NCBI GenBank assembly: GCA_965224085.1
Contig: CBDCYI010000005.1
Location: forward strand, 800,001 to 864,000
Direction of reading: 5' to 3'
Length of the DNA: 64,000 bases
From: Candidatus Marinacidobacterales bacterium
GTDB taxonomy: Bacteria > Acidobacteriota > Vicinamibacteria > Marinacidobacterales > SMYC01
The notes under the pieces are model-generated. The model ran no database searches. It was not told the origin of the DNA and was given only the letters and a program-made list of their open reading frames with translations. The position numbers were made by a program, and so were the translations under genes. Positions 1-41,735 of the stretch are shown here, one piece after another (the first letter of the stretch is position 1; each line of letters opens with the position of its first letter).

Positions 1-41
1 CGATCGGGTCCGGATTCACGTGGAGATAGAAGAAAAACGCG

Positions 42-458
42 ATGACGGTCCTGCGTCGGTTCGTGGGCGCCCTTTTTGCCGCCGGAGTGCTGGGAATCGG
101 CATCGAGCTTTGCCTCCTCGGCCATACAGAAGATCGCTGGCAGCTCGTTCCGCTGGTGCTGCTCGGGCTCGGGCTACTCGCGCAGATTTGGCTCGTTTGG
201 CGCACAAGCGCCGCGAGCGTTCGCGCGTTCCGATCCCTGATGCTTTTATTCGTGCTCAGTGGTTTCGTGGGCCTCTACTTGCACTACAGCGCCAATGTCG
301 AGTTCGAGCTCGAGATGTATCCGTCGCTCAGAGGACTGAACCTGGTTCGGGAAGCTTTGACCGGCGCGCTGCCGGCGCTCGCTCCCGCGACCATGATGCA
401 TCTCGGGTTCTTGGGATTGGCGTCTACTTACCGATATCCGAAAGGAGTTACACCATGA
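42..458 (+). CDS. Hypothetical integral membrane protein (about 4 TM helices)
   Basis: 138 aa ORF with four hydrophobic stretches; its stop overlaps the next ATG (ATGA at 455-458). Confidence 0.7.
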   Translation: MTVLRRFVGALFAAGVLGIGIELCLLGHTEDRWQLVPLVLLGLGLLAQIWLVWRTSAASVRAFRSLMLLFVLSGFVGLYLHYSANVEFELEMYPSLRGLNLVREALTGALPALAPATMMHLGFLGLASTYRYPKGVTP

Positions 459-1099
459 AAATAAAAGCTTCGCTTGGGTTCGCCATAGCGCTACTCGTCG
501 CCTTTACCGCCGTGCATGGCGTCGCCCAGGTCGGTAAGAACGACGATGTGGTTAATCCGAACCTCGCCGGGAAAGACGAGCTCCTTCGCCTGGTACATCT
601 CGACGAGACCCTGGTCGAGTCGATCCTCGAGCGACGTCCGTCCATCGGCATGCTCGATCTCCACGGACTTCTGAAGCAAACCTTGAGCGAGGAAGCGCTC
701 GAGCAGCTCTACGCGCAACTATTCGTCCCGATCGATCTCAACACGGCGAGCCGTGAAGAGATCCTTCTCGTCCCCGGTGTCGGCCCCCGAATGGCCCACG
801 AGTTCGAAGAATACCGCCCCTATCAGGCCATGGCGCAATTCCGGCGAGAGATGGGCAAATATGTCGACGACGACGAGGTCGCGCGAATGGAGCAGTACGT
901 TTTCGTCCCCATCGATCTCAACGCGGCCAGCGAGGAAGACATTCTCACCATTCCGGGTGTCGGGCAACGCATGCTTCATGAGTTCATGGAGTACCGTCCC
1001 TACCGCAGCATCGCACAATTCCGGCGCGAGATCGGCAAGTATGTCGACGACGACGAGCTGAACCGCCTCGCGCGCTATGTGACGCTTCGAACCGAGTGA
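455..1099 (+). CDS. Secreted helix-hairpin-helix repeat protein (ComEA/PsbU-like HhH)
   Basis: RBS AAGGAG before ATG 455; signal peptide; two 60 aa repeats FVPIDLNxASxExILxxPGVGxRM spaced 180 nt apart. Confidence 0.75.
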   Translation: MKIKASLGFAIALLVAFTAVHGVAQVGKNDDVVNPNLAGKDELLRLVHLDETLVESILERRPSIGMLDLHGLLKQTLSEEALEQLYAQLFVPIDLNTASREEILLVPGVGPRMAHEFEEYRPYQAMAQFRREMGKYVDDDEVARMEQYVFVPIDLNAASEEDILTIPGVGQRMLHEFMEYRPYRSIAQFRREIGKYVDDDELNRLARYVTLRTE

Positions 1100-1273
1100 C
1101 GGACTGTCGAAGGCGCTTTGTTAGATAGGCCTCGCGCGCCACAGCCCGAGCGGTTCTTCTCTCCGTCGTCTCAGTGACATTCCGGCGACGCCCTGTACGC
1201 TTGCCGAAGCATCAGTGCAGCGAAAGCGTGTGTTGCGGGAAGAGTCGGTAGGAAATGTCTGTGTACAAGGCCT

Positions 1274-1346
1274 CATCCCGCGCCTCTGGCGCGAGGCCAG
1301 CATCCTCTCGCGCCTTTGGCGCGAGTCAGTCAGATCGTCTCGCGCC
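1274..1346. repeat. Two full and one partial tandem palindromic units (cgcgcc-tNt-ggcgcg) in the IS110 left end
   Basis: catcccgcgcctctggcgcgaggccag, then catcctctcgcgcctttggcgcgagtcag, then partial gatcgtctcgcgcc. Confidence 0.6.
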
Positions 1347-1511
1347 GGCAAGAAGAGGGTGAACCTGCTGTGCGACAATAGTGAGCCCCAGCCGCTACAA
1401 ACGACCGGGGCTCTGATGTTTGGATGGCCCCCGGAGGAGGCGCTCCACTACAAGTTGAAGCTAGCCTCTCACATCCGGGCGGCCATCGTCCAGCACTTTG
1501 CTGAGTTCCGA

Positions 1512-1925
1512 ATGGCCACCAAACCTGTCGTTCTTCTCCGGCTTTTCTGCCGCAACAAAAGCTGTGGGATGCCTTTCTTCATCTGCAAGTCATGTTACCA
1601 GGGACAGTGCTACTGCGGTCCAACCTGCCGTGACGAAACCCGGCGAGAGAACCAGCGCGAAAATAACCGAAATTACCAGAAAGGTTTCAACTCACGAAAA
1701 CTCCACGCGGCTCGGCAACAGAATTATCGTCTACGCCAGGCGGCGAAAATAGTGACGGAGCAAGGGTTCATTCACCCCAGTAATTCTGGCAGTCTAGGAG
1801 TTCGTGAAATTCAAGCTAGTGGCCCGATGGCTCATTCAATGAAAACGAAGATTGACAGTATCAGATATGCCAAATGCTGTATCTGCGGCCGACGCGGGAG
1901 GCTAAAGGATGTCGAAGCTGGGTAA
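1512..1925 (+). CDS. Cys-rich, basic, putative Zn-binding protein (IS accessory ORF)
   Basis: CRNKSC..CKSC..CYCGPTC followed by an Arg/Gln-rich helix and C-terminal CCIC; ATG 1512 is in frame with ORF 1215..1925. Confidence 0.65.
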   Translation: MATKPVVLLRLFCRNKSCGMPFFICKSCYQGQCYCGPTCRDETRRENQRENNRNYQKGFNSRKLHAARQQNYRLRQAAKIVTEQGFIHPSNSGSLGVREIQASGPMAHSMKTKIDSIRYAKCCICGRRGRLKDVEAG

Positions 1926-2325
1926 TGAACCGCTCACGAGCGATGCTCTGACAGAAAACAATTACGTCCGGACGATTTTGGACCTCTATCTTTCCATTCC
2001 GAACACACCTGAGCGGCCACGGCGCGACGACCGCTTCATCGCGACGCAGCTCTACCGCCAAGGAGTCCCGTTACACGAATTCGAGTGTGCCCTACTTCTG
2101 GGTTGCGCTCGTAGGGAGCTACAAGAACATGAGGAGCCACTGCAGCCCATTCGCTCCCTTCGTTATTTTTCACCTGTGCTCCAGGAAGTGCAAAGTCAAT
2201 ATCTAGACCCGCCTTATGTTCTTTACATTCGAGAAAAACTCTCGGACGTGCTTCGCCCGAAACTACCGAGAAAAAACCGAGCACGAACTCGTGGCATCGC
2301 GCGACAACTCCGATTGCCATGGTAG
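1909..2325 (+). CDS. Hypothetical protein (IS accessory ORF)
   Basis: 138 aa, overlaps the previous ORF; YVRTILDLY...IRSLRYF pattern resembles mobile-element-associated hypotheticals. Confidence 0.65.
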   Translation: MSKLGNEPLTSDALTENNYVRTILDLYLSIPNTPERPRRDDRFIATQLYRQGVPLHEFECALLLGCARRELQEHEEPLQPIRSLRYFSPVLQEVQSQYLDPPYVLYIREKLSDVLRPKLPRKNRARTRGIARQLRLPW

Positions 2326-2372
2326 AGCAAATATCACGATGAGCTTGGACTATTTTCGATTTCGTCAGCAGC

Positions 2373-2507
2373 TTGCCGGCAACGCCATACGTCGCCCTGC
2401 GCTCCTAGCGCCAGGAATGGACATGCGTGCCGGCAATTCTTTTGTGATGGACATCCAGTGGGGAGTTGCGCTTCGAGCGCCAGTACAGGGGCCGATGAAA
2501 CATCACA
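2373..2507 (+). ncRNA. Putative bridge RNA (target-binding loop 2373-2436, donor-binding loop 2443-2507)
   Basis: Two stem/internal-loop/hairpin units, each capped by gcgct-NNN-agcgc-ca; loop strands match the element junction sequences. Confidence 0.8.
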
Positions 2508-2532
2508 TGCGCTGGCGGAAATGAGTTCTTCC

Positions 2533-3789
2533 ATGAATCAACTCAAATACGACTTCTTCGTCGGTATCGACCTGGGTCAATGGCTTCACTTGGCCAGTGT
2601 GGTCGATGCCAAAGGTAACTTCTTGGCGGAGAGAGGCTTCCCCCATAGCCGCGAAGGACTATCGGGAACCATCGACTGGCTTTTGGAAGAGACCTCGCAA
2701 GATACCGAGCGCATCGCGGTGGCGATCGAAAAACCTCATGGGGCCGTCGTCGAGCTCTTTCTTGACCACGGCATCGCCATTTTCTCCATCAATCCCAAGC
2801 AGGTCGACCGTTTCCGCGACCGGCATTCTATGAGCGGCGCCAAGGATGATCGGCGAGACGCCTTCGTTCTCGCCGATTCGCTCAGAACCGACGGCCACCG
2901 CTTTCAGCGCTTGCATCTCCCACCTACGGAGATCCTCGCTATGCGCGGGTTGCTGAGTACCCGCGACCAACTCGTCAAAAACCATGTGGCCCTCAGCTCG
3001 CAGATCCGAGAACTCCTTACTCGTTGCTGGCCTCACCTCGTCTCGCTCGCGCCAAAGGACAAGGCTCTCGACGCTTTTTTCTGCGAGCTCCTAAAACTCT
3101 TCTTCGAATCCAGCCCCAACCCTCTTAGCCGCCACTCCATTGAGACCCTCGCTCAAAAACACCGCATCCGACGTCTAAAACCCGAGAAGATCCTCGATAC
3201 CCTCAAACAAAAACCTCTCCGGGTCGCAACCGCAACCACTCAAGCTACCGCCGAGCATCTCCAACTACTACTCCAGCAGTTGCTCCTCGTTCGACAACAT
3301 CGTCGTGCCTCCGACCAGCATCTCGAGAAGTGGTTCAAGCGCGTGCAAGCACTAACCGACGAGCATTGCTCCGACCCTGCCATTCTTGCCTCTTTGCCCG
3401 GCGTCGGTGCTTACGTGCTCGCCTCCGTGCTCTGCTATGCCCACGACCCCATTCGGCTCCGTAATCTCAACGCCTTCAGGACTCTCGGCGGCATTGCTCC
3501 TGTCACAAAAAAGAGCGGCAAGCGCGGTCAGTTGCGACCAACGATCCTGATGAGGAGAGCTCGCTCTTTGCCCCTCAATAATGCTCTCCACCATTGGGCA
3601 CGCACTGCCGTTTTGCACGACCCCCACTTCAAAGAACACTACGACCGGCTTCGTGACAGAGGCCACAGCCATGCCAGAGCTCTCAGAGGCGTCATGGACC
3701 GCATTCTCCCCATCGCCATTGCGATGCTTCGACAAGGAACCCTTTACGACCCCTCCCGGTGGCCCACAAAAAAAGCGAATCGCGGATGA
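2533..3789 (+). CDS. IS110-family recombinase/transposase
   Basis: RuvC-like DEDD motifs (VGIDLG, IEKP, KDDRRDAF); C-terminal LPGVG and GIAPVTKKSGK with the conserved Ser. ATG 2521 is an alternative start. Confidence 0.93.
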   Translation: MNQLKYDFFVGIDLGQWLHLASVVDAKGNFLAERGFPHSREGLSGTIDWLLEETSQDTERIAVAIEKPHGAVVELFLDHGIAIFSINPKQVDRFRDRHSMSGAKDDRRDAFVLADSLRTDGHRFQRLHLPPTEILAMRGLLSTRDQLVKNHVALSSQIRELLTRCWPHLVSLAPKDKALDAFFCELLKLFFESSPNPLSRHSIETLAQKHRIRRLKPEKILDTLKQKPLRVATATTQATAEHLQLLLQQLLLVRQHRRASDQHLEKWFKRVQALTDEHCSDPAILASLPGVGAYVLASVLCYAHDPIRLRNLNAFRTLGGIAPVTKKSGKRGQLRPTILMRRARSLPLNNALHHWARTAVLHDPHFKEHYDRLRDRGHSHARALRGVMDRILPIAIAMLRQGTLYDPSRWPTKKANRG

Positions 3790-3846
3790 CTATTACGAAG
3801 AACGTTTTCTCTTGATCCGGCGTGGGGAGTCCATTCCCCCTAAAGG

Positions 3847-4179
3847 CTAGATTCCGAGCCGTCGCTTGTCTGGAAGCCGGGCCTCTTTTGGAATGGACTT
3901 CATCCACTTGGAGACGCGGGCGACTATCCGGTCTTTGGTTCTCTCTTTTTCAAGCGGGTCTGGCGACTCGTGCAGGTGGATGTCGAGCGCGATCCTGCCT
4001 GCAGCCTCATCTGCGTAGACACTTCTCTCTCGGGACCATTTACCCTTTACTCTCCACAGCCTGTCTCCACCCATCCATCCCTTTTCCTCAACCCATCTTA
4101 GGCTGTGGATTCTCATGAGGCTCACTTCAATTTCTCGCTCAAACAGCTCCCATCGTTCGGGGTCGTAGCTCGTCTTCAA
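3847..4179 (-). CDS. Hypothetical protein
   Basis: 110 aa ORF with protein-like composition and a GGAG upstream; no motif recognised. Confidence 0.45.
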   Translation of the reverse strand: MKTSYDPERWELFEREIEVSLMRIHSLRWVEEKGWMGGDRLWRVKGKWSRERSVYADEAAGRIALDIHLHESPDPLEKERTKDRIVARVSKWMKSIPKEARLPDKRRLGI

Positions 4180-4385
4180 AACGCCTCCTCGGGAAAACGA
4201 CTGGAGGAGAGCTCACACGCTTGCGCCTTGATCCGCTCAATGCGCCTCGGTCAGCTTGGTCCAGGCTAATTGATTCTCTGACACAACCCTGCAATTTAGC
4301 ATATCTTGTGGTTCTGGCGTTTGGCAAAGAAGTCTTGACAAGAACGTCTTTTTGAGGCACCTACAGCCGTTCCTCTGAGGACCGG

Positions 4386-4668
4386 ATGCAAGGATTCTCA
4401 CTTTTCGAAGCCCAGGCCGGCACCGCCGCACGGCGTTTTCTCTATTCCTCTATCTTTTGGCTGCTGCTTCCGGGGGCCTTTGGCTTGGTTCTCGCGTCGC
4501 TTCTCTATGTGCCCGAGCTTCACGACCGGCTACCCATGGCGGTCAAGCCCTATCTGAGCTTCGGCCGGCTTCGGCCAACCCATGTGAATTTGACGGTTTT
4601 CGGATGGCTTTCGATGGTTTATTGCGGGGCCATCCTTTATATCTTGCCTCGGCTCACGCGGGCGCCGA
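4386..4668 (+). pseudogene. N-terminal fragment of a cbb3-type/heme-copper oxidase subunit I-like protein
   Basis: LSFGRLRPTHVNLTVFGWLSM..ILYILPRLT matches the CcoN N-terminus; similarity stops after about 94 aa and the frame runs antisense into the next gene. Confidence 0.65.
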
Positions 4669-4709
4669 GGAAAAGCGCAACAGAGAAGAGCCGTTCGGCG
4701 GGCGCACCG

Positions 4710-6746
4710 CTAGTTCGTGCCGGCTGGAGCGTAAATCGTAAGGCGCTCTCCAGCTACGATGCGGTCGGAGCTCATCTGATTCCACCGGCGGATCTCTTCG
4801 ACGGTGACGCTGAAGCGGCGAGCAATCGTCGAGAGCGTATCGCCACGCCGAATGCGATAGCGCGTCGTTGTCGATGCGGAAACTTCGGCTATTGCCGTCG
4901 CTTCACGGACACGAAGCTTCTGGCCGGAAACTATCCGCGTCTGGCGGCTCGAGAAACCGTTCAAGCGCCGCAGCACCGAAAGACCGAGGCCGTGTGCTTC
5001 GGCGATGTGCCCGAGTGTGTCTCCGGGCTGCACGATATAGATGTCGGTGTCGCTCGGCACCAGCGACGAGGACGATGCCGAGCGCGTGTTGCGCGCGGCT
5101 CGCTCGATGACGACGAGCCTTTGACCGGGATAGATGCGGCTTGAGCGCGGCCGCAATCCGTTCAACTCACGCAGCAGTCGAAGTGACATGTTGAACGAGG
5201 TCGAGATCTCACCGAGCGTATCGCCCCGTTGCACGAGGTAGACCTCCTGACCGTTCTCGGCCACCGCTTCTCGCCTCTGCACGGCACGGATGCGCTGGGC
5301 GCCCGCGCCCGGAGGCACGGGAACGGTGAGCACTTGTCCAGGATGAATGAGGGAGCGCCGGCTGATGTCGTTGGCGGCGGTGAGCGCATTCACGGTCGTA
5401 CCATAGCGGCTCGCGATCTGGGACAGCGTGTCGCCGCGGCGGACGACATGCGTCCCGAAACGCACCCGCTCCGCCTCCGGAATCTCTGCGAGCGCGGCGC
5501 GAAACACTTCGGTGGTTCCTTTGGGGACACGCAGGGCGTAATTTTCGCTGTCGAGAGGAGTCACCCAACGGCGGAGCTCGGGGTTCAGAAACTTCATGTC
5601 GTCGACGCTCACGCCCGCGGACTTGGCCGCAGTCGCGAGATCCACGGGATATTCGACACGCACGACGTCATATTCGAGCGGCGCAGTCGTGGGAGGCTCG
5701 AAGCCATACTCCTCGGGGTTTTTGGCGACCACGATCGCGGCGAGAATGAGCGGCACATAGCTCCGCGTTTCGCGCGGGAGCACGCGGCGTTTCGCGTGAA
5801 CCCAGAAATCACGGCTCCCGGTGCGCCGGATCGCGCGCTCTACACGCCTAGACCCGGAGTTATAGGCAGCCATCACGAGATACCAATCGCCAAACTGTTC
5901 GTAGAGGTCCTTCAGGTGGCGTGCCGCCGCGCGCGTCGCTTTTTCCGGATTGAAGCGATCGTCGACCCAAAAATCTTGCCGAAGGTCGTAACGCTGTCCG
6001 GTGCCGCGGATGAACTGCCAGATGCCTCGCGCACCTGCTCGCGACATCGCGCGAGATTTGAAAGCACTCTCGACCATCGCGAGGTAGAGCAGATCCTGGG
6101 GCATGTCTTCTTCGGCAAAGATCTCTTCGATCATCGAGCGGTAATAACCGGAGCGGTCGAGGGCCTCTTGGAACCAATCGTGGCGGCGAAGCTGGTACAT
6201 CTCGATGATGGAGCGCACCCGCGCATTCAGCACGATCGGGATGTCGTAGGTCGCGGTGGGCAGATCGGCCTCCGCCGCGGCACCGACGTCTTCGGGAAAC
6301 TCCTCGAGCGCATCGCTCGTCAGCTCGTCGACGGCCGCGAACTCGAATTGCTCCTGCGCATCCGCATCAAGAGCGCTGCGTTCCGTTTCCTGGACGGTCG
6401 CGATGATCTCGTCATAGAGTTGCGCCGACTCCGGGTAAGCGGCGATGCCACCGGGAGCATCCAAAAGCAGGTCGACCGCGCGATCGAGAGCGAGCCGCGC
6501 TTCGCTCCAATTACCGCGATGCGCGAGCTCCTCGCCTTTGTCGAGCTCGATGCGCGCTTGGCGCACGGCTGCGCGCTGGAGCGATGCTGTGACTTCCGCG
6601 GTCGGCGGCGGTTCGGGTCCAGATGCGGGCTTCTTAGACGAGCAGGAAGCGGCCACCAGGCCAAAAGAACAAATCCATATCCATCGCCAAATCCATGGGT
6701 GGGAAAGCTCCAGCACGCGCAAACCTCCAAGTAGTCTTGCTTTCAC
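4710..6746 (-). CDS. mltD: Membrane-bound lytic murein transglycosylase, MltD-like (SLT domain plus 4 LysM), lipoprotein
   Basis: Lipobox VAASC; VESAF, GIWQF, AAYNSG and ETRSYV motifs; four GDTL LysM repeats. Confidence 0.85.
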   Translation of the reverse strand: MKARLLGGLRVLELSHPWIWRWIWICSFGLVAASCSSKKPASGPEPPPTAEVTASLQRAAVRQARIELDKGEELAHRGNWSEARLALDRAVDLLLDAPGGIAAYPESAQLYDEIIATVQETERSALDADAQEQFEFAAVDELTSDALEEFPEDVGAAAEADLPTATYDIPIVLNARVRSIIEMYQLRRHDWFQEALDRSGYYRSMIEEIFAEEDMPQDLLYLAMVESAFKSRAMSRAGARGIWQFIRGTGQRYDLRQDFWVDDRFNPEKATRAAARHLKDLYEQFGDWYLVMAAYNSGSRRVERAIRRTGSRDFWVHAKRRVLPRETRSYVPLILAAIVVAKNPEEYGFEPPTTAPLEYDVVRVEYPVDLATAAKSAGVSVDDMKFLNPELRRWVTPLDSENYALRVPKGTTEVFRAALAEIPEAERVRFGTHVVRRGDTLSQIASRYGTTVNALTAANDISRRSLIHPGQVLTVPVPPGAGAQRIRAVQRREAVAENGQEVYLVQRGDTLGEISTSFNMSLRLLRELNGLRPRSSRIYPGQRLVVIERAARNTRSASSSSLVPSDTDIYIVQPGDTLGHIAEAHGLGLSVLRRLNGFSSRQTRIVSGQKLRVREATAIAEVSASTTTRYRIRRGDTLSTIARRFSVTVEEIRRWNQMSSDRIVAGERLTIYAPAGTN

Positions 6747-41600: not shown

Positions 41601-41735
41601 TGCAAAGAATACGCCAAGACCGTCGCTCGGGGACTCATGTAAACCGTTATGTTTGAGTAATTTGTACCGGCAAAACGTACACGCGGCAGTGTCTGTGTGG
41701 GGAGTATCGGGGCGGACGATGGGGATTCGCCTACA
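41601..41735 (-). promoter_or_regulatory. sigma54 promoter with upstream TGTAGG box
   Basis: Minus strand TGGCGT-attct-TTGCA (41616-41601); TGTAGGCGAATCCCC starts 119 bp upstream. Confidence 0.75.

Follow-up and report, generated by a model that had tools for sequence, protein, structure and literature searches.

We report here that a 64,000-nucleotide stretch of the genome of a Candidatus Marinacidobacterales bacterium (hereafter the window, corresponding to C5:800001-864000 in an assembly of 6.87 Mb and 12 contigs) carries at positions 1192-3832 an insertion sequence (IS) of the IS110 group which, judged from its sequence and from those of its relatives, is very probably one of several recent copies of an element that moves by bridge-RNA-guided recombination. 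The element measures 2,639 bp from core to core, with the dinucleotide core CC at both ends, and lies on the plus strand, as do the genes, RNA domain and guides described below. Bridge-RNA IS110 elements are a known kind, of which this one is a variant in its use of a coding motif as target, in the wobble pattern of its guides and in the possession of an accessory gene pair that it shares with IS21-type elements.

The enzyme encoded at the right of the element (2533-3789, with an in-frame ATG also at 2521) is a 418-residue IS110-family DEDD/Ser recombinase, as indicated by matches in both Pfam and NCBIfam. Its residues 10-167 cover the full length of the PF01548 DEDD_Tnp_IS110 profile (E = 2.8e-31), PF02371 Transposase_20 is matched at 1.1e-11, and the NCBIfam model NF033542, 'IS110 family RNA-guided transposase', gives 162.9 bits, above its cut-off of 140. 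In the PDB it matches IS621 and ISCro4 only. The alignment with IS621 chain 8wt6_A (E = 2.2e-7) superposes the GID, DxxD and SG motifs and places KKSGK of the recombinase against YESGS, which holds the catalytic Ser of IS621; only the Tnp domain aligns significantly, and in this weak alignment the Glu of the DEDD set is two residues out of register. A one-genome-per-species scan with the recombinase as query yielded 60 loci, of which the closest are L039 (90% identity, in a Candidatus Marinacidobacterales metagenome-assembled genome, MAG) and L023 (62%, in an uncultured Acidobacteria MAG), the remainder being 32-69% and mostly 33-43% identical and distributed over several phyla. In most of the 60 loci, the region upstream of the gene shows the donor strings and the two-loop layout described below.

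A BLAST search with window positions 1100-3900 against the 6.87-Mb genome returned 15 segments, most of which group into two subfamilies. Subfamily A comprises three loci that are 100% identical over 2,647-2,801 nt, the upper value being the window copy matched to itself, namely the window copy, C4:1682506-1685158 and C11:289307-291953; residues 1-418 of the recombinase are likewise 100% identical in three genome copies. The same subfamily includes two near-full copies (C11:626414-629060, which is 2 nt longer, and C9:115774-118250, of 2,466 bp), a copy with an internal deletion of about 1 kb (C5:333078-334701), a left half (C5:1945120-1946508) and a right-end fragment (C4:1703792-1704405), and in two A copies the recombinase frame is split. 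Subfamily B, 85-91% identical to A, has three copies in the genome, one full (C5:1762835-1765452, 2,602 bp) and two truncated at the 5' side, and C9 also holds a left fragment of 75% identity. In addition, a 35-nt right-end fragment, 100% identical to window 3803-3837 and inverted (C11:766918-766952 in genome G000), abuts the truncated 5' side of the B copy at C11:764568-766918 in a head-to-head arrangement that may record recombination between elements.

The termini are shared throughout. The left end, which begins with TGTACGCTTGC and continues into a structured leader (1194-1415), is the same at all copies having one, and the right end (3790-3832), composed of TTGATC (3812-3817), then GTGGGGAGT and the core CC (3831-3832), is common to all copies in which it is preserved. 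Among 11 places examined, CC is followed by TGTACGCTTGC at 8/8 that have a left end and preceded by GTGGGGAGT at 10/10 that have a right end, ten places besides the window copy thus ending in one or the other of these ways; every complete copy has CC at both ends. For the C4:1682506-1685158 copy the empty site exists in the same-genus genomes G001 and G002, where the flanks are contiguous around a single CC in a homologous kinase gene. An earlier note on this DNA, made from the window sequence, had named an IS110 recombinase, placed the element ends at these positions and called for a CC core rather than the CT of IS621. The Pfam and NCBIfam matches bear out the first of these claims, and the other copies together with the empty site of the C4 copy identify the proposed ends as the true ones, the divergent ends that the note had named as grounds for giving up its reading being seen at no copy; all the strings that it quoted sit where it had placed them. 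The CC at the ends also stands, as a trait common to the whole subfamily sampled and not particular to this copy.

Between the two small genes of the element and the recombinase lie four short segments that correspond to the ends and flanks in the manner expected of bridge-RNA guides. On the donor side, the left donor guide GTGGGGAGT (2458-2466) is identical to the right end at 3822-3830, and the right donor guide GTACAGG (2483-2489), which with the handshake bases GG extends over 2483-2491, is the reverse complement of CCTGTAC at 1192-1198, the match continuing by one base so that 2483-2490 is the reverse complement of 1191-1198. Both donor guides, the left of 9 nt and the right of 7 nt including the core, thus match exactly. 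On the target side, the left target guide CGTCGCCC (2390-2397), which includes the core CC, agrees at 7/8 positions with CGACGCCC at 1186-1193, that is, with the left half-site CGACGC plus the core CC (1192-1193), and the left-flank consensus of the other copies, CGTCGC-CC, is the left target guide itself. The right target guide GGAATGG (2414-2420) is the exact reverse complement of the right half-site, core CC plus ATTCC (3831-3837), and the adjoining handshake bases AC (2421-2422) lengthen this match to 9 nt, 2414-2422 being the reverse complement of GTCCATTCC at 3829-3837. The core is in this way covered by three of the four guides. By dinucleotide shuffling of the 64-kb window, 0.40 occurrences of GTGGGGAGT are expected, and three are present, at the two named sites and at 41697, the last being an unrelated occurrence with no CC after it; GGAATGGAC is expected 0.51 times and found three times; and GTACAGGG, expected 0.61 times, is found twice, precisely at both named sites.

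The correspondence between target guides and flanks extends to the relatives, in which the host DNA differs. The right target guide matches its own right flank without mismatch over 7 nt in 10/21 loci, with seven distinct guides. For the left target guide we used a register-free scan in which the best match of the 9-nt left flank averages 7.05/9 in cognate pairs (22 unique loci) against 4.87 in 416 non-cognate pairings, and reaches at least 8/9 in 36% of the former and 1.7% of the latter; a comparison in fixed columns was set aside, as it fails through a one-base register shift in one subgroup. The two subfamilies of the genome itself also differ in a corresponding manner. Copies of A have the right target guide GGAATGG and T at the variable base in 4/7 right flanks, the flanks favouring CCATTCC, and copies of B have the left target guide CTTCGCCC and the right target guide GGTATGG, with CCATACC in 2/3 right flanks.

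That these segments are parts of an RNA is indicated by covariation among 28 homologues. The proposed RNA domain, at 2362-2518, consists of a closing stem, a target-binding loop and a donor-binding loop. The target loop has an outer stem formed by 2374-2385 with 2425-2435, the donor loop one formed by 2444-2449 with 2501-2506, and both are capped by hairpins of the form GCGCT-NNN-AGCGC-CA (2399-2413 and 2468-2482); the closing stem was taken from the single-sequence fold alone. RNAalifold applied to the 28-homologue alignment recovers four stems. In a count of 28 pairs in 28 sequences, 94.3% of the cells are paired, against 24.6-44.7% in slid controls, and 24/28 base pairs show a compensatory change on both sides, a result reached by 0/500 shuffles on any measure. 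The single-sequence fold of 2330-2530 is not exceptional (z = -1.48, with 16/200 shuffles folding as well), so that the structural support rests on covariation. RNAalifold also proposed a helix within the left donor guide (columns 108-123), but none of its pairs has changed on both sides and it was dropped before the count; the CATC/GATG helix of the donor loop, which MAFFT shifts between rows, lies outside the pair score. The guide segments are single-stranded, and are conserved where the DNA that they face is conserved.

These data also bear on whether the internal copies of the end sequences could be DNA sites, for instance subterminal repeats bound by a protein, rather than parts of a guide RNA. 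Seen as DNA alone, the finding is indeed no more than a recurrence of short strings. Compensatory changes in 24 of 28 stem pairs, however, are the mark of a structured RNA; from one relative to another the target-side strings vary in step with the host DNA beside them, which repeats acting as DNA sites would not explain, since the host DNA lies outside the element; and the enzyme family has solved bridge-RNA complexes. We therefore regard such DNA sites as a very improbable account, and retain the guide RNA.

Two further bases of the target loop are supported as handshake bases by their conservation. The AC that follows the right target guide complements GT of the donor (2465-2466) and pairs with just one of the two bases of its cognate target (GC); over the 28 sequences AC is at least 90% conserved and the donor GT is invariant. 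In the donor loop, the first G alone of the corresponding GG complements the target base just before the core. In Hiraizumi 2024 (PMC11208158), each right guide is followed 3' by two bases that, once strands have been exchanged, pair with positions 6-7 of the other DNA, and handshake pairing with the cognate DNA is described as blocking the reaction. The conserved AC and GT agree with this rule. The earlier note had anticipated much of this: the AC it singled out does complement the donor GT and is conserved in the homologues as given above, its two-loop RNA is strongly borne out by the 28 homologues, and target guides match insertion sites of the element and of its relatives (as assessed in the copies of the genome, at 21 loci with a called right end and at 22 with a left flank). 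Of the checks that it had proposed, covariation supports the structure, and the fold of 2330-2530 as a single sequence is not distinguishable from shuffles. The exact match of both donor guides to the ends also holds.

What the target guides face points to a particular coding motif. The natural target is the antisense strand of the codons for G-G-M-G-(D/E)-V, the glycine-rich loop of Hanks-type Ser/Thr kinase genes, and every insertion at a kinase glycine loop splits a kinase gene. When the empty sites of the genome were reconstructed and read on the strand opposite the element, 4/7 encode GxGG/MGxVY (the slash marking the junction), the other three being non-kinase sites: that of the window copy, one in a TolB/amidohydrolase-like ORF (open reading frame) and one more. 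In L002 and L023 the match to Pfam Pkinase sets in exactly at the junction, from profile position 13, and in L023 the split gene is that of an 872-residue kinase-TPR protein. In a clade of metagenome loci introduced below, G[GSA]M is encoded by 16/16 right flanks and GxV[YFWL] by 16/18 left flanks, the other two having a stop at the aromatic position. A full-text literature search found no paper on a mobile element that uses a kinase-motif landing site. Where an A copy interrupts the kinase gene of locus L002 (4150-5649; contig C4 of G000), 500 codons of the reading frame on the downstream side of the insertion include 4 stops, and the disrupted gene seems to be decaying, even though the inserted copy is identical to two others.

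The guides themselves carry an imprint of this coding context. Over 31 elements, with redundancy kept, the variable positions are position 3 of the right target guide and, in the region of the left guide, positions 6, 9 and 3, the last just beyond the 8-nt guide; opposite them stand the third codon bases for Gly, Gly, Asp/Glu and Val, and the rest of the guides is invariant. Were the wobble bases to track each insertion site, cognate pairs should stand out, and within the genome they do so to a degree that lends weak support (6/10 cognate against 1/10 non-cognate). In the metagenome clade the match at these positions is 33-44% for cognate and 30-40% for non-cognate pairs (n = 16-18), and site-by-site tracking was set aside as unsupported there. 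Since cognate pairs do no better than non-cognate ones, the wobble pattern is read as a relaxed constraint opposite variable target bases, with mismatches probably tolerated.

The 13-nt A target has 0 perfect occurrences in the genome, 24 with one mismatch and 276 with two, and there is one perfect 13-nt B target, unoccupied, at C5:176698 (plus-strand index), within the kinase loop GKGGMGEVW; 28 intact glycine loops fit the search motif. Kinase loops are far commoner among occupied sites than among the pool of near matches, which could reflect longer recognition or selection against insertion in single-copy genes.

In the mechanism that we propose, the element would excise as a circle joined at the CC core, and the joint of right end and left end would create a promoter reading into the element. 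An RNA of about 155 nt from 2362-2518 would fold into two internal loops, of which the donor loop would pair with the joined ends GTGGGGAGT / CC / TGTAC and the target loop with a site of the form CGTCGC-CC-ATTCC. The DEDD/Ser recombinase would exchange strands at the core, and the AC beside the right target guide would then pair with the incoming donor GT. Of these steps, we infer the production of the RNA, its release from a transcript that crosses two genes, circularisation and redirection by changes in the loops. The candidate promoter is obtained by joining 3812-3832 to 1194-1201, which brings the -35 half TTGATC (3812-3817) to 17 nt from the -10 half TACGCT (1196-1201). In relatives, TTG is found 17-18 nt upstream of TACNNT at 20/21 junctions, the remaining one having TTTACA (assessed by eye). 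Durrant 2024 describes a junction promoter for IS110, and the fixed spacing of the hexamers supports that idea. Behind the left end, between it and the first small gene, the leader contains two near-identical hairpins CGCGCC-TNT-GGCGCG (1279-1293 and 1309-1323) and folds better than most shuffled sequences (z = -2.33, with 1/200 shuffles as good); in the N-terminal region of the alignment of that gene, the number of hairpin units seems to vary among homologues.

Several observations weigh against this reading. The window copy lies outside any kinase ORF, and its exact empty site was not found, the same-genus genome G002 lacking some 100 nt at that point. The computed circle junction and the computed empty site of this copy are both absent from the assembly and from all fetched loci; such absence is expected of an assembly and says little. 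The left donor guide is followed by TG and not by the core CC. The right target guide is mismatched to its own flank in 11/21 loci (one mismatch in two, two in seven, three in two), and in 10 of these 11 the called right end is 2.2-4.8 kb from the left end, so that either these loci contain cargo or the right end was wrongly called. Among occupied A sites none is perfect over 13 nt, the six having both flanks showing 1-4 mismatches. A permissive scan of window 1-6000 with Rfam 15 gave no matching family, the one match, to an miRNA, being at E = 0.41 and elsewhere. Finally, the junction hexamers match just 7/12 consensus bases, a scan of the linear element gave no sigma-70-like promoter, and some 1.2 kb, including two genes on which the earlier note was silent, separates the junction promoter from the bridge RNA downstream of it, which means that the promoter-to-RNA logic differs from that of IS621. 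The junction promoter of the earlier note is hence upheld in its hexamers and spacing, which are conserved in relatives, and not in its equation with the IS621 arrangement.

Some of the same facts would fit a genome in which all copies are now inactive relics and the matches between guides and flanks record past activity. Copies are damaged (two of A with a split recombinase frame, one with a deletion of about 1 kb, and half elements), no perfect A target is left, and the computed circle junction is absent from the assembly and fetched loci. Against this stand the three loci without a single difference over at least 2,647 nt, in which ORF1, ORF2, the RNA and the 418-residue recombinase are all intact, an identity at different loci that implies very recent movement, as well as the one perfect B target and the 24 A targets with one mismatch that remain. 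We accordingly judge general inactivity improbable, and hold to an element that has moved recently by way of its bridge RNA.

The two genes between the leader and the RNA domain distinguish this clade from compact IS110 elements. ORF1 (1416-1925, its frame also open from a GTG at 1215) encodes a Cys-rich protein of 169 residues, and ORF2 (1909-2325), which overlaps the end of ORF1 by 17 nt, a helical protein of 138 residues; neither has a match in Pfam. ORF1 has 11 close homologues, with nine Cys invariant in 10 close sequences and eight of the nine still invariant across 60 more distant ones, and a profile search retrieves 3,091 representatives at E <= 1e-3; when 10 relatives from this search were scanned, the called protein in single cases also included an IS110 DEDD domain, IS21-type domains or a phage integrase domain. 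The 72 homologues of ORF2, none of them named, share 18 invariant columns. The ratio of nonsynonymous to synonymous substitution rates is 0.33 for ORF1 (against L039) and 0.30-0.34 for ORF2, similar to that of the recombinase. The AlphaFold2 models are confident, with a mean predicted local distance difference test (pLDDT) score of 79.8 for ORF1 and 78.5 for ORF2, the latter with five helices. A fold search of the PDB with both models gave no match with E below 4, and an Atlas search with ORF1 gave unnamed clusters only; weak NinG-like matches of ORF1 were below any threshold and were not used. The predicted ORF1-ORF2 complex scores 0.00 against a mark of 0.32, in a run without controls that speaks neither for nor against binding.

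A scan of metagenomes with the ORF2 alignment gave 66 loci, which place the pair beside two types of transposase. In the first group (L129-L164), ORF1, ORF2 and the recombinase occur in that order in 26/36 loci, with recombinases 65-93% identical, and almost all of these 26 have bridge-RNA strings between ORF2 and the recombinase; of the other ten, eight run off the contig end and two show ORF2 alone. In the second (L165-L194), nine loci have an ORF1-like gene 2.3-2.7 kb upstream of an ORF2-like gene, and in both that were examined, L180 (816-3809) and L169 (641-3865), the genes between are by Pfam IstA and IstB of the IS21 type, IstA consisting of rve and Mu-transpos_C_2. Similarly, in two further genomes an ORF1-like gene stands directly before IstA (L101, 1501-3441, and L104, 1372-3394), and one genome, G045, has 10 copies of the ORF1-like/IstA unit. 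Bridge-RNA strings are absent from the IS21-type units, and the flanks of those examined are not kinase genes. From these comparisons we conclude that ORF1 and ORF2 are real genes that travel with transposases.

In an otherwise genuine IS110 element, ORF1 and ORF2 could be mere passengers, picked up once and without part in transposition or its control, an account that we consider quite possible. The full B copy has a frameshift in ORF1, and the same split match recurs in the other B copies; as B nevertheless has three copies, ORF1 is not needed in cis. L023, moreover, has ORF1 and lacks ORF2, and most compact relatives are without both genes and still show the guide logic. On the other side, 26/36 metagenome loci keep the order ORF1, ORF2, bridge RNA, recombinase even where recombinase identity is as low as 65%, purifying selection acts on the two genes about as strongly as on the recombinase, and the same two families stand beside another transposase type (IstA/IstB), which is unexpected of random cargo. 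Because their position is kept through a clade whose recombinases are only 65-93% identical, ORF1 and ORF2 are, on the sequence comparisons, most likely accessory genes of the element and not random cargo. More tentatively, the pair may constitute a portable accessory module acquired by two unrelated IS kinds, the bridge-RNA IS110 clade and the IS21-type group, mainly expressed from the circle and possibly controlling a step of the cycle, a proposal for which we claim limited probability. Its position between the junction promoter and the bridge RNA would have the module expressed mainly from the excised circle, and possible steps are the release of the bridge RNA from the long transcript, the choice between insertion and excision, and control of copy number.

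The DNA around the element was also surveyed. The roughly 100-nt stretch that hosts the window copy (1101-1193 and 3833-3841) is unique in its own genome and is missing from the otherwise collinear region of G002. Just to the right, window 3841-4317 has 2-3 matches of 83-93% in each of several related genomes (G002, G003 and G012) and overlaps an ORF of 110 residues on the minus strand (3847-4179) without a Pfam match, which may itself belong to some repeated or mobile unit. Upstream of the element, the gene at 440-1099 encodes two helix-hairpin-helix repeats (HHH_3, E = 2.2e-18), and its halves are alike at the DNA level too, with internal matches of 76-77%.

These observations matter in several respects. 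Bridge recombinases are under development as programmable genome-writing tools, and natural cores, guide layouts and possible protein helpers widen the known rules; a clade with a CC core and a left donor guide free of the core offers a series of related guide sets for comparison with hundreds of kinase sites. A conserved protein-coding motif with dozens of paralogues per genome would serve a mobile element as a renewable landing pad. The ORF1 and ORF2 families, common to IS110- and IS21-type elements, are a lead to unknown transposition factors, and the portable module, if real, would represent natural protein co-factors of bridge recombination, so far undescribed.

Set beside IS621 of Escherichia coli, with which it shares a DEDD and Ser recombinase, the element has the core CC in place of CT, a recombinase of 418 residues in place of about 326, and a length of 2.64 kb; two genes separate its left end from the RNA, which is consequently not at the 5' end of the element. 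IS621 targets a repetitive extragenic palindromic (REP) sequence, whereas the target here is a coding motif of kinase genes. The two systems are alike in having the RNA encoded upstream of the recombinase with the target loop before the donor loop, left guides that read as the top strand and right guides that read as its complement, a right target guide followed 3' by two handshake bases complementary to the donor, a 2-nt core flanking the element and, as a candidate here, a promoter across the circle joint. According to Durrant 2024 all four IS621 guides include the core, in contrast to the left donor guide here, which is without it.

Closer to home, the compact relatives (L024-L078, from Acidobacteriota, Gemmatimonadota, Alphaproteobacteria, Planctomycetota and others) have the same donor strings GTGGGGAGT / CC / TGTAC, the two-loop RNA, a GGAC motif on the 3' side of the target loop and the spacing of the junction promoter. 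They differ in recombinases only 33-43% identical, in a left end 20-140 nt upstream of the target loop without ORF1 or ORF2, and in other targets, such as C-runs or CCGCAACGCC. At 2,639 bp, and with ORF1 and ORF2 at 1416-2325, the element itself falls outside the canonical compact IS110 layout of about 1.0-1.6 kb with recombinase and RNA only. In exceeding the canonical 1.0-1.6 kb and having extra genes inside its ends it resembles the cargo-bearing IS110 elements of Hu et al. (bioRxiv 10.64898/2026.08.14.744561), whose cargo is described as progressive, varied and often plasmid-derived. The element here instead has a fixed pair of small genes in a fixed place, between junction promoter and RNA, throughout a deep clade, although the supplements of that preprint may list such elements. 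With the IS21 family (istA-istB), finally, it shares relatives of ORF1 and ORF2, arranged there in the order ORF1-like, IstA, IstB, ORF2-like around a transposition machinery of an unrelated kind, a DDE transposase with an AAA+ helper.

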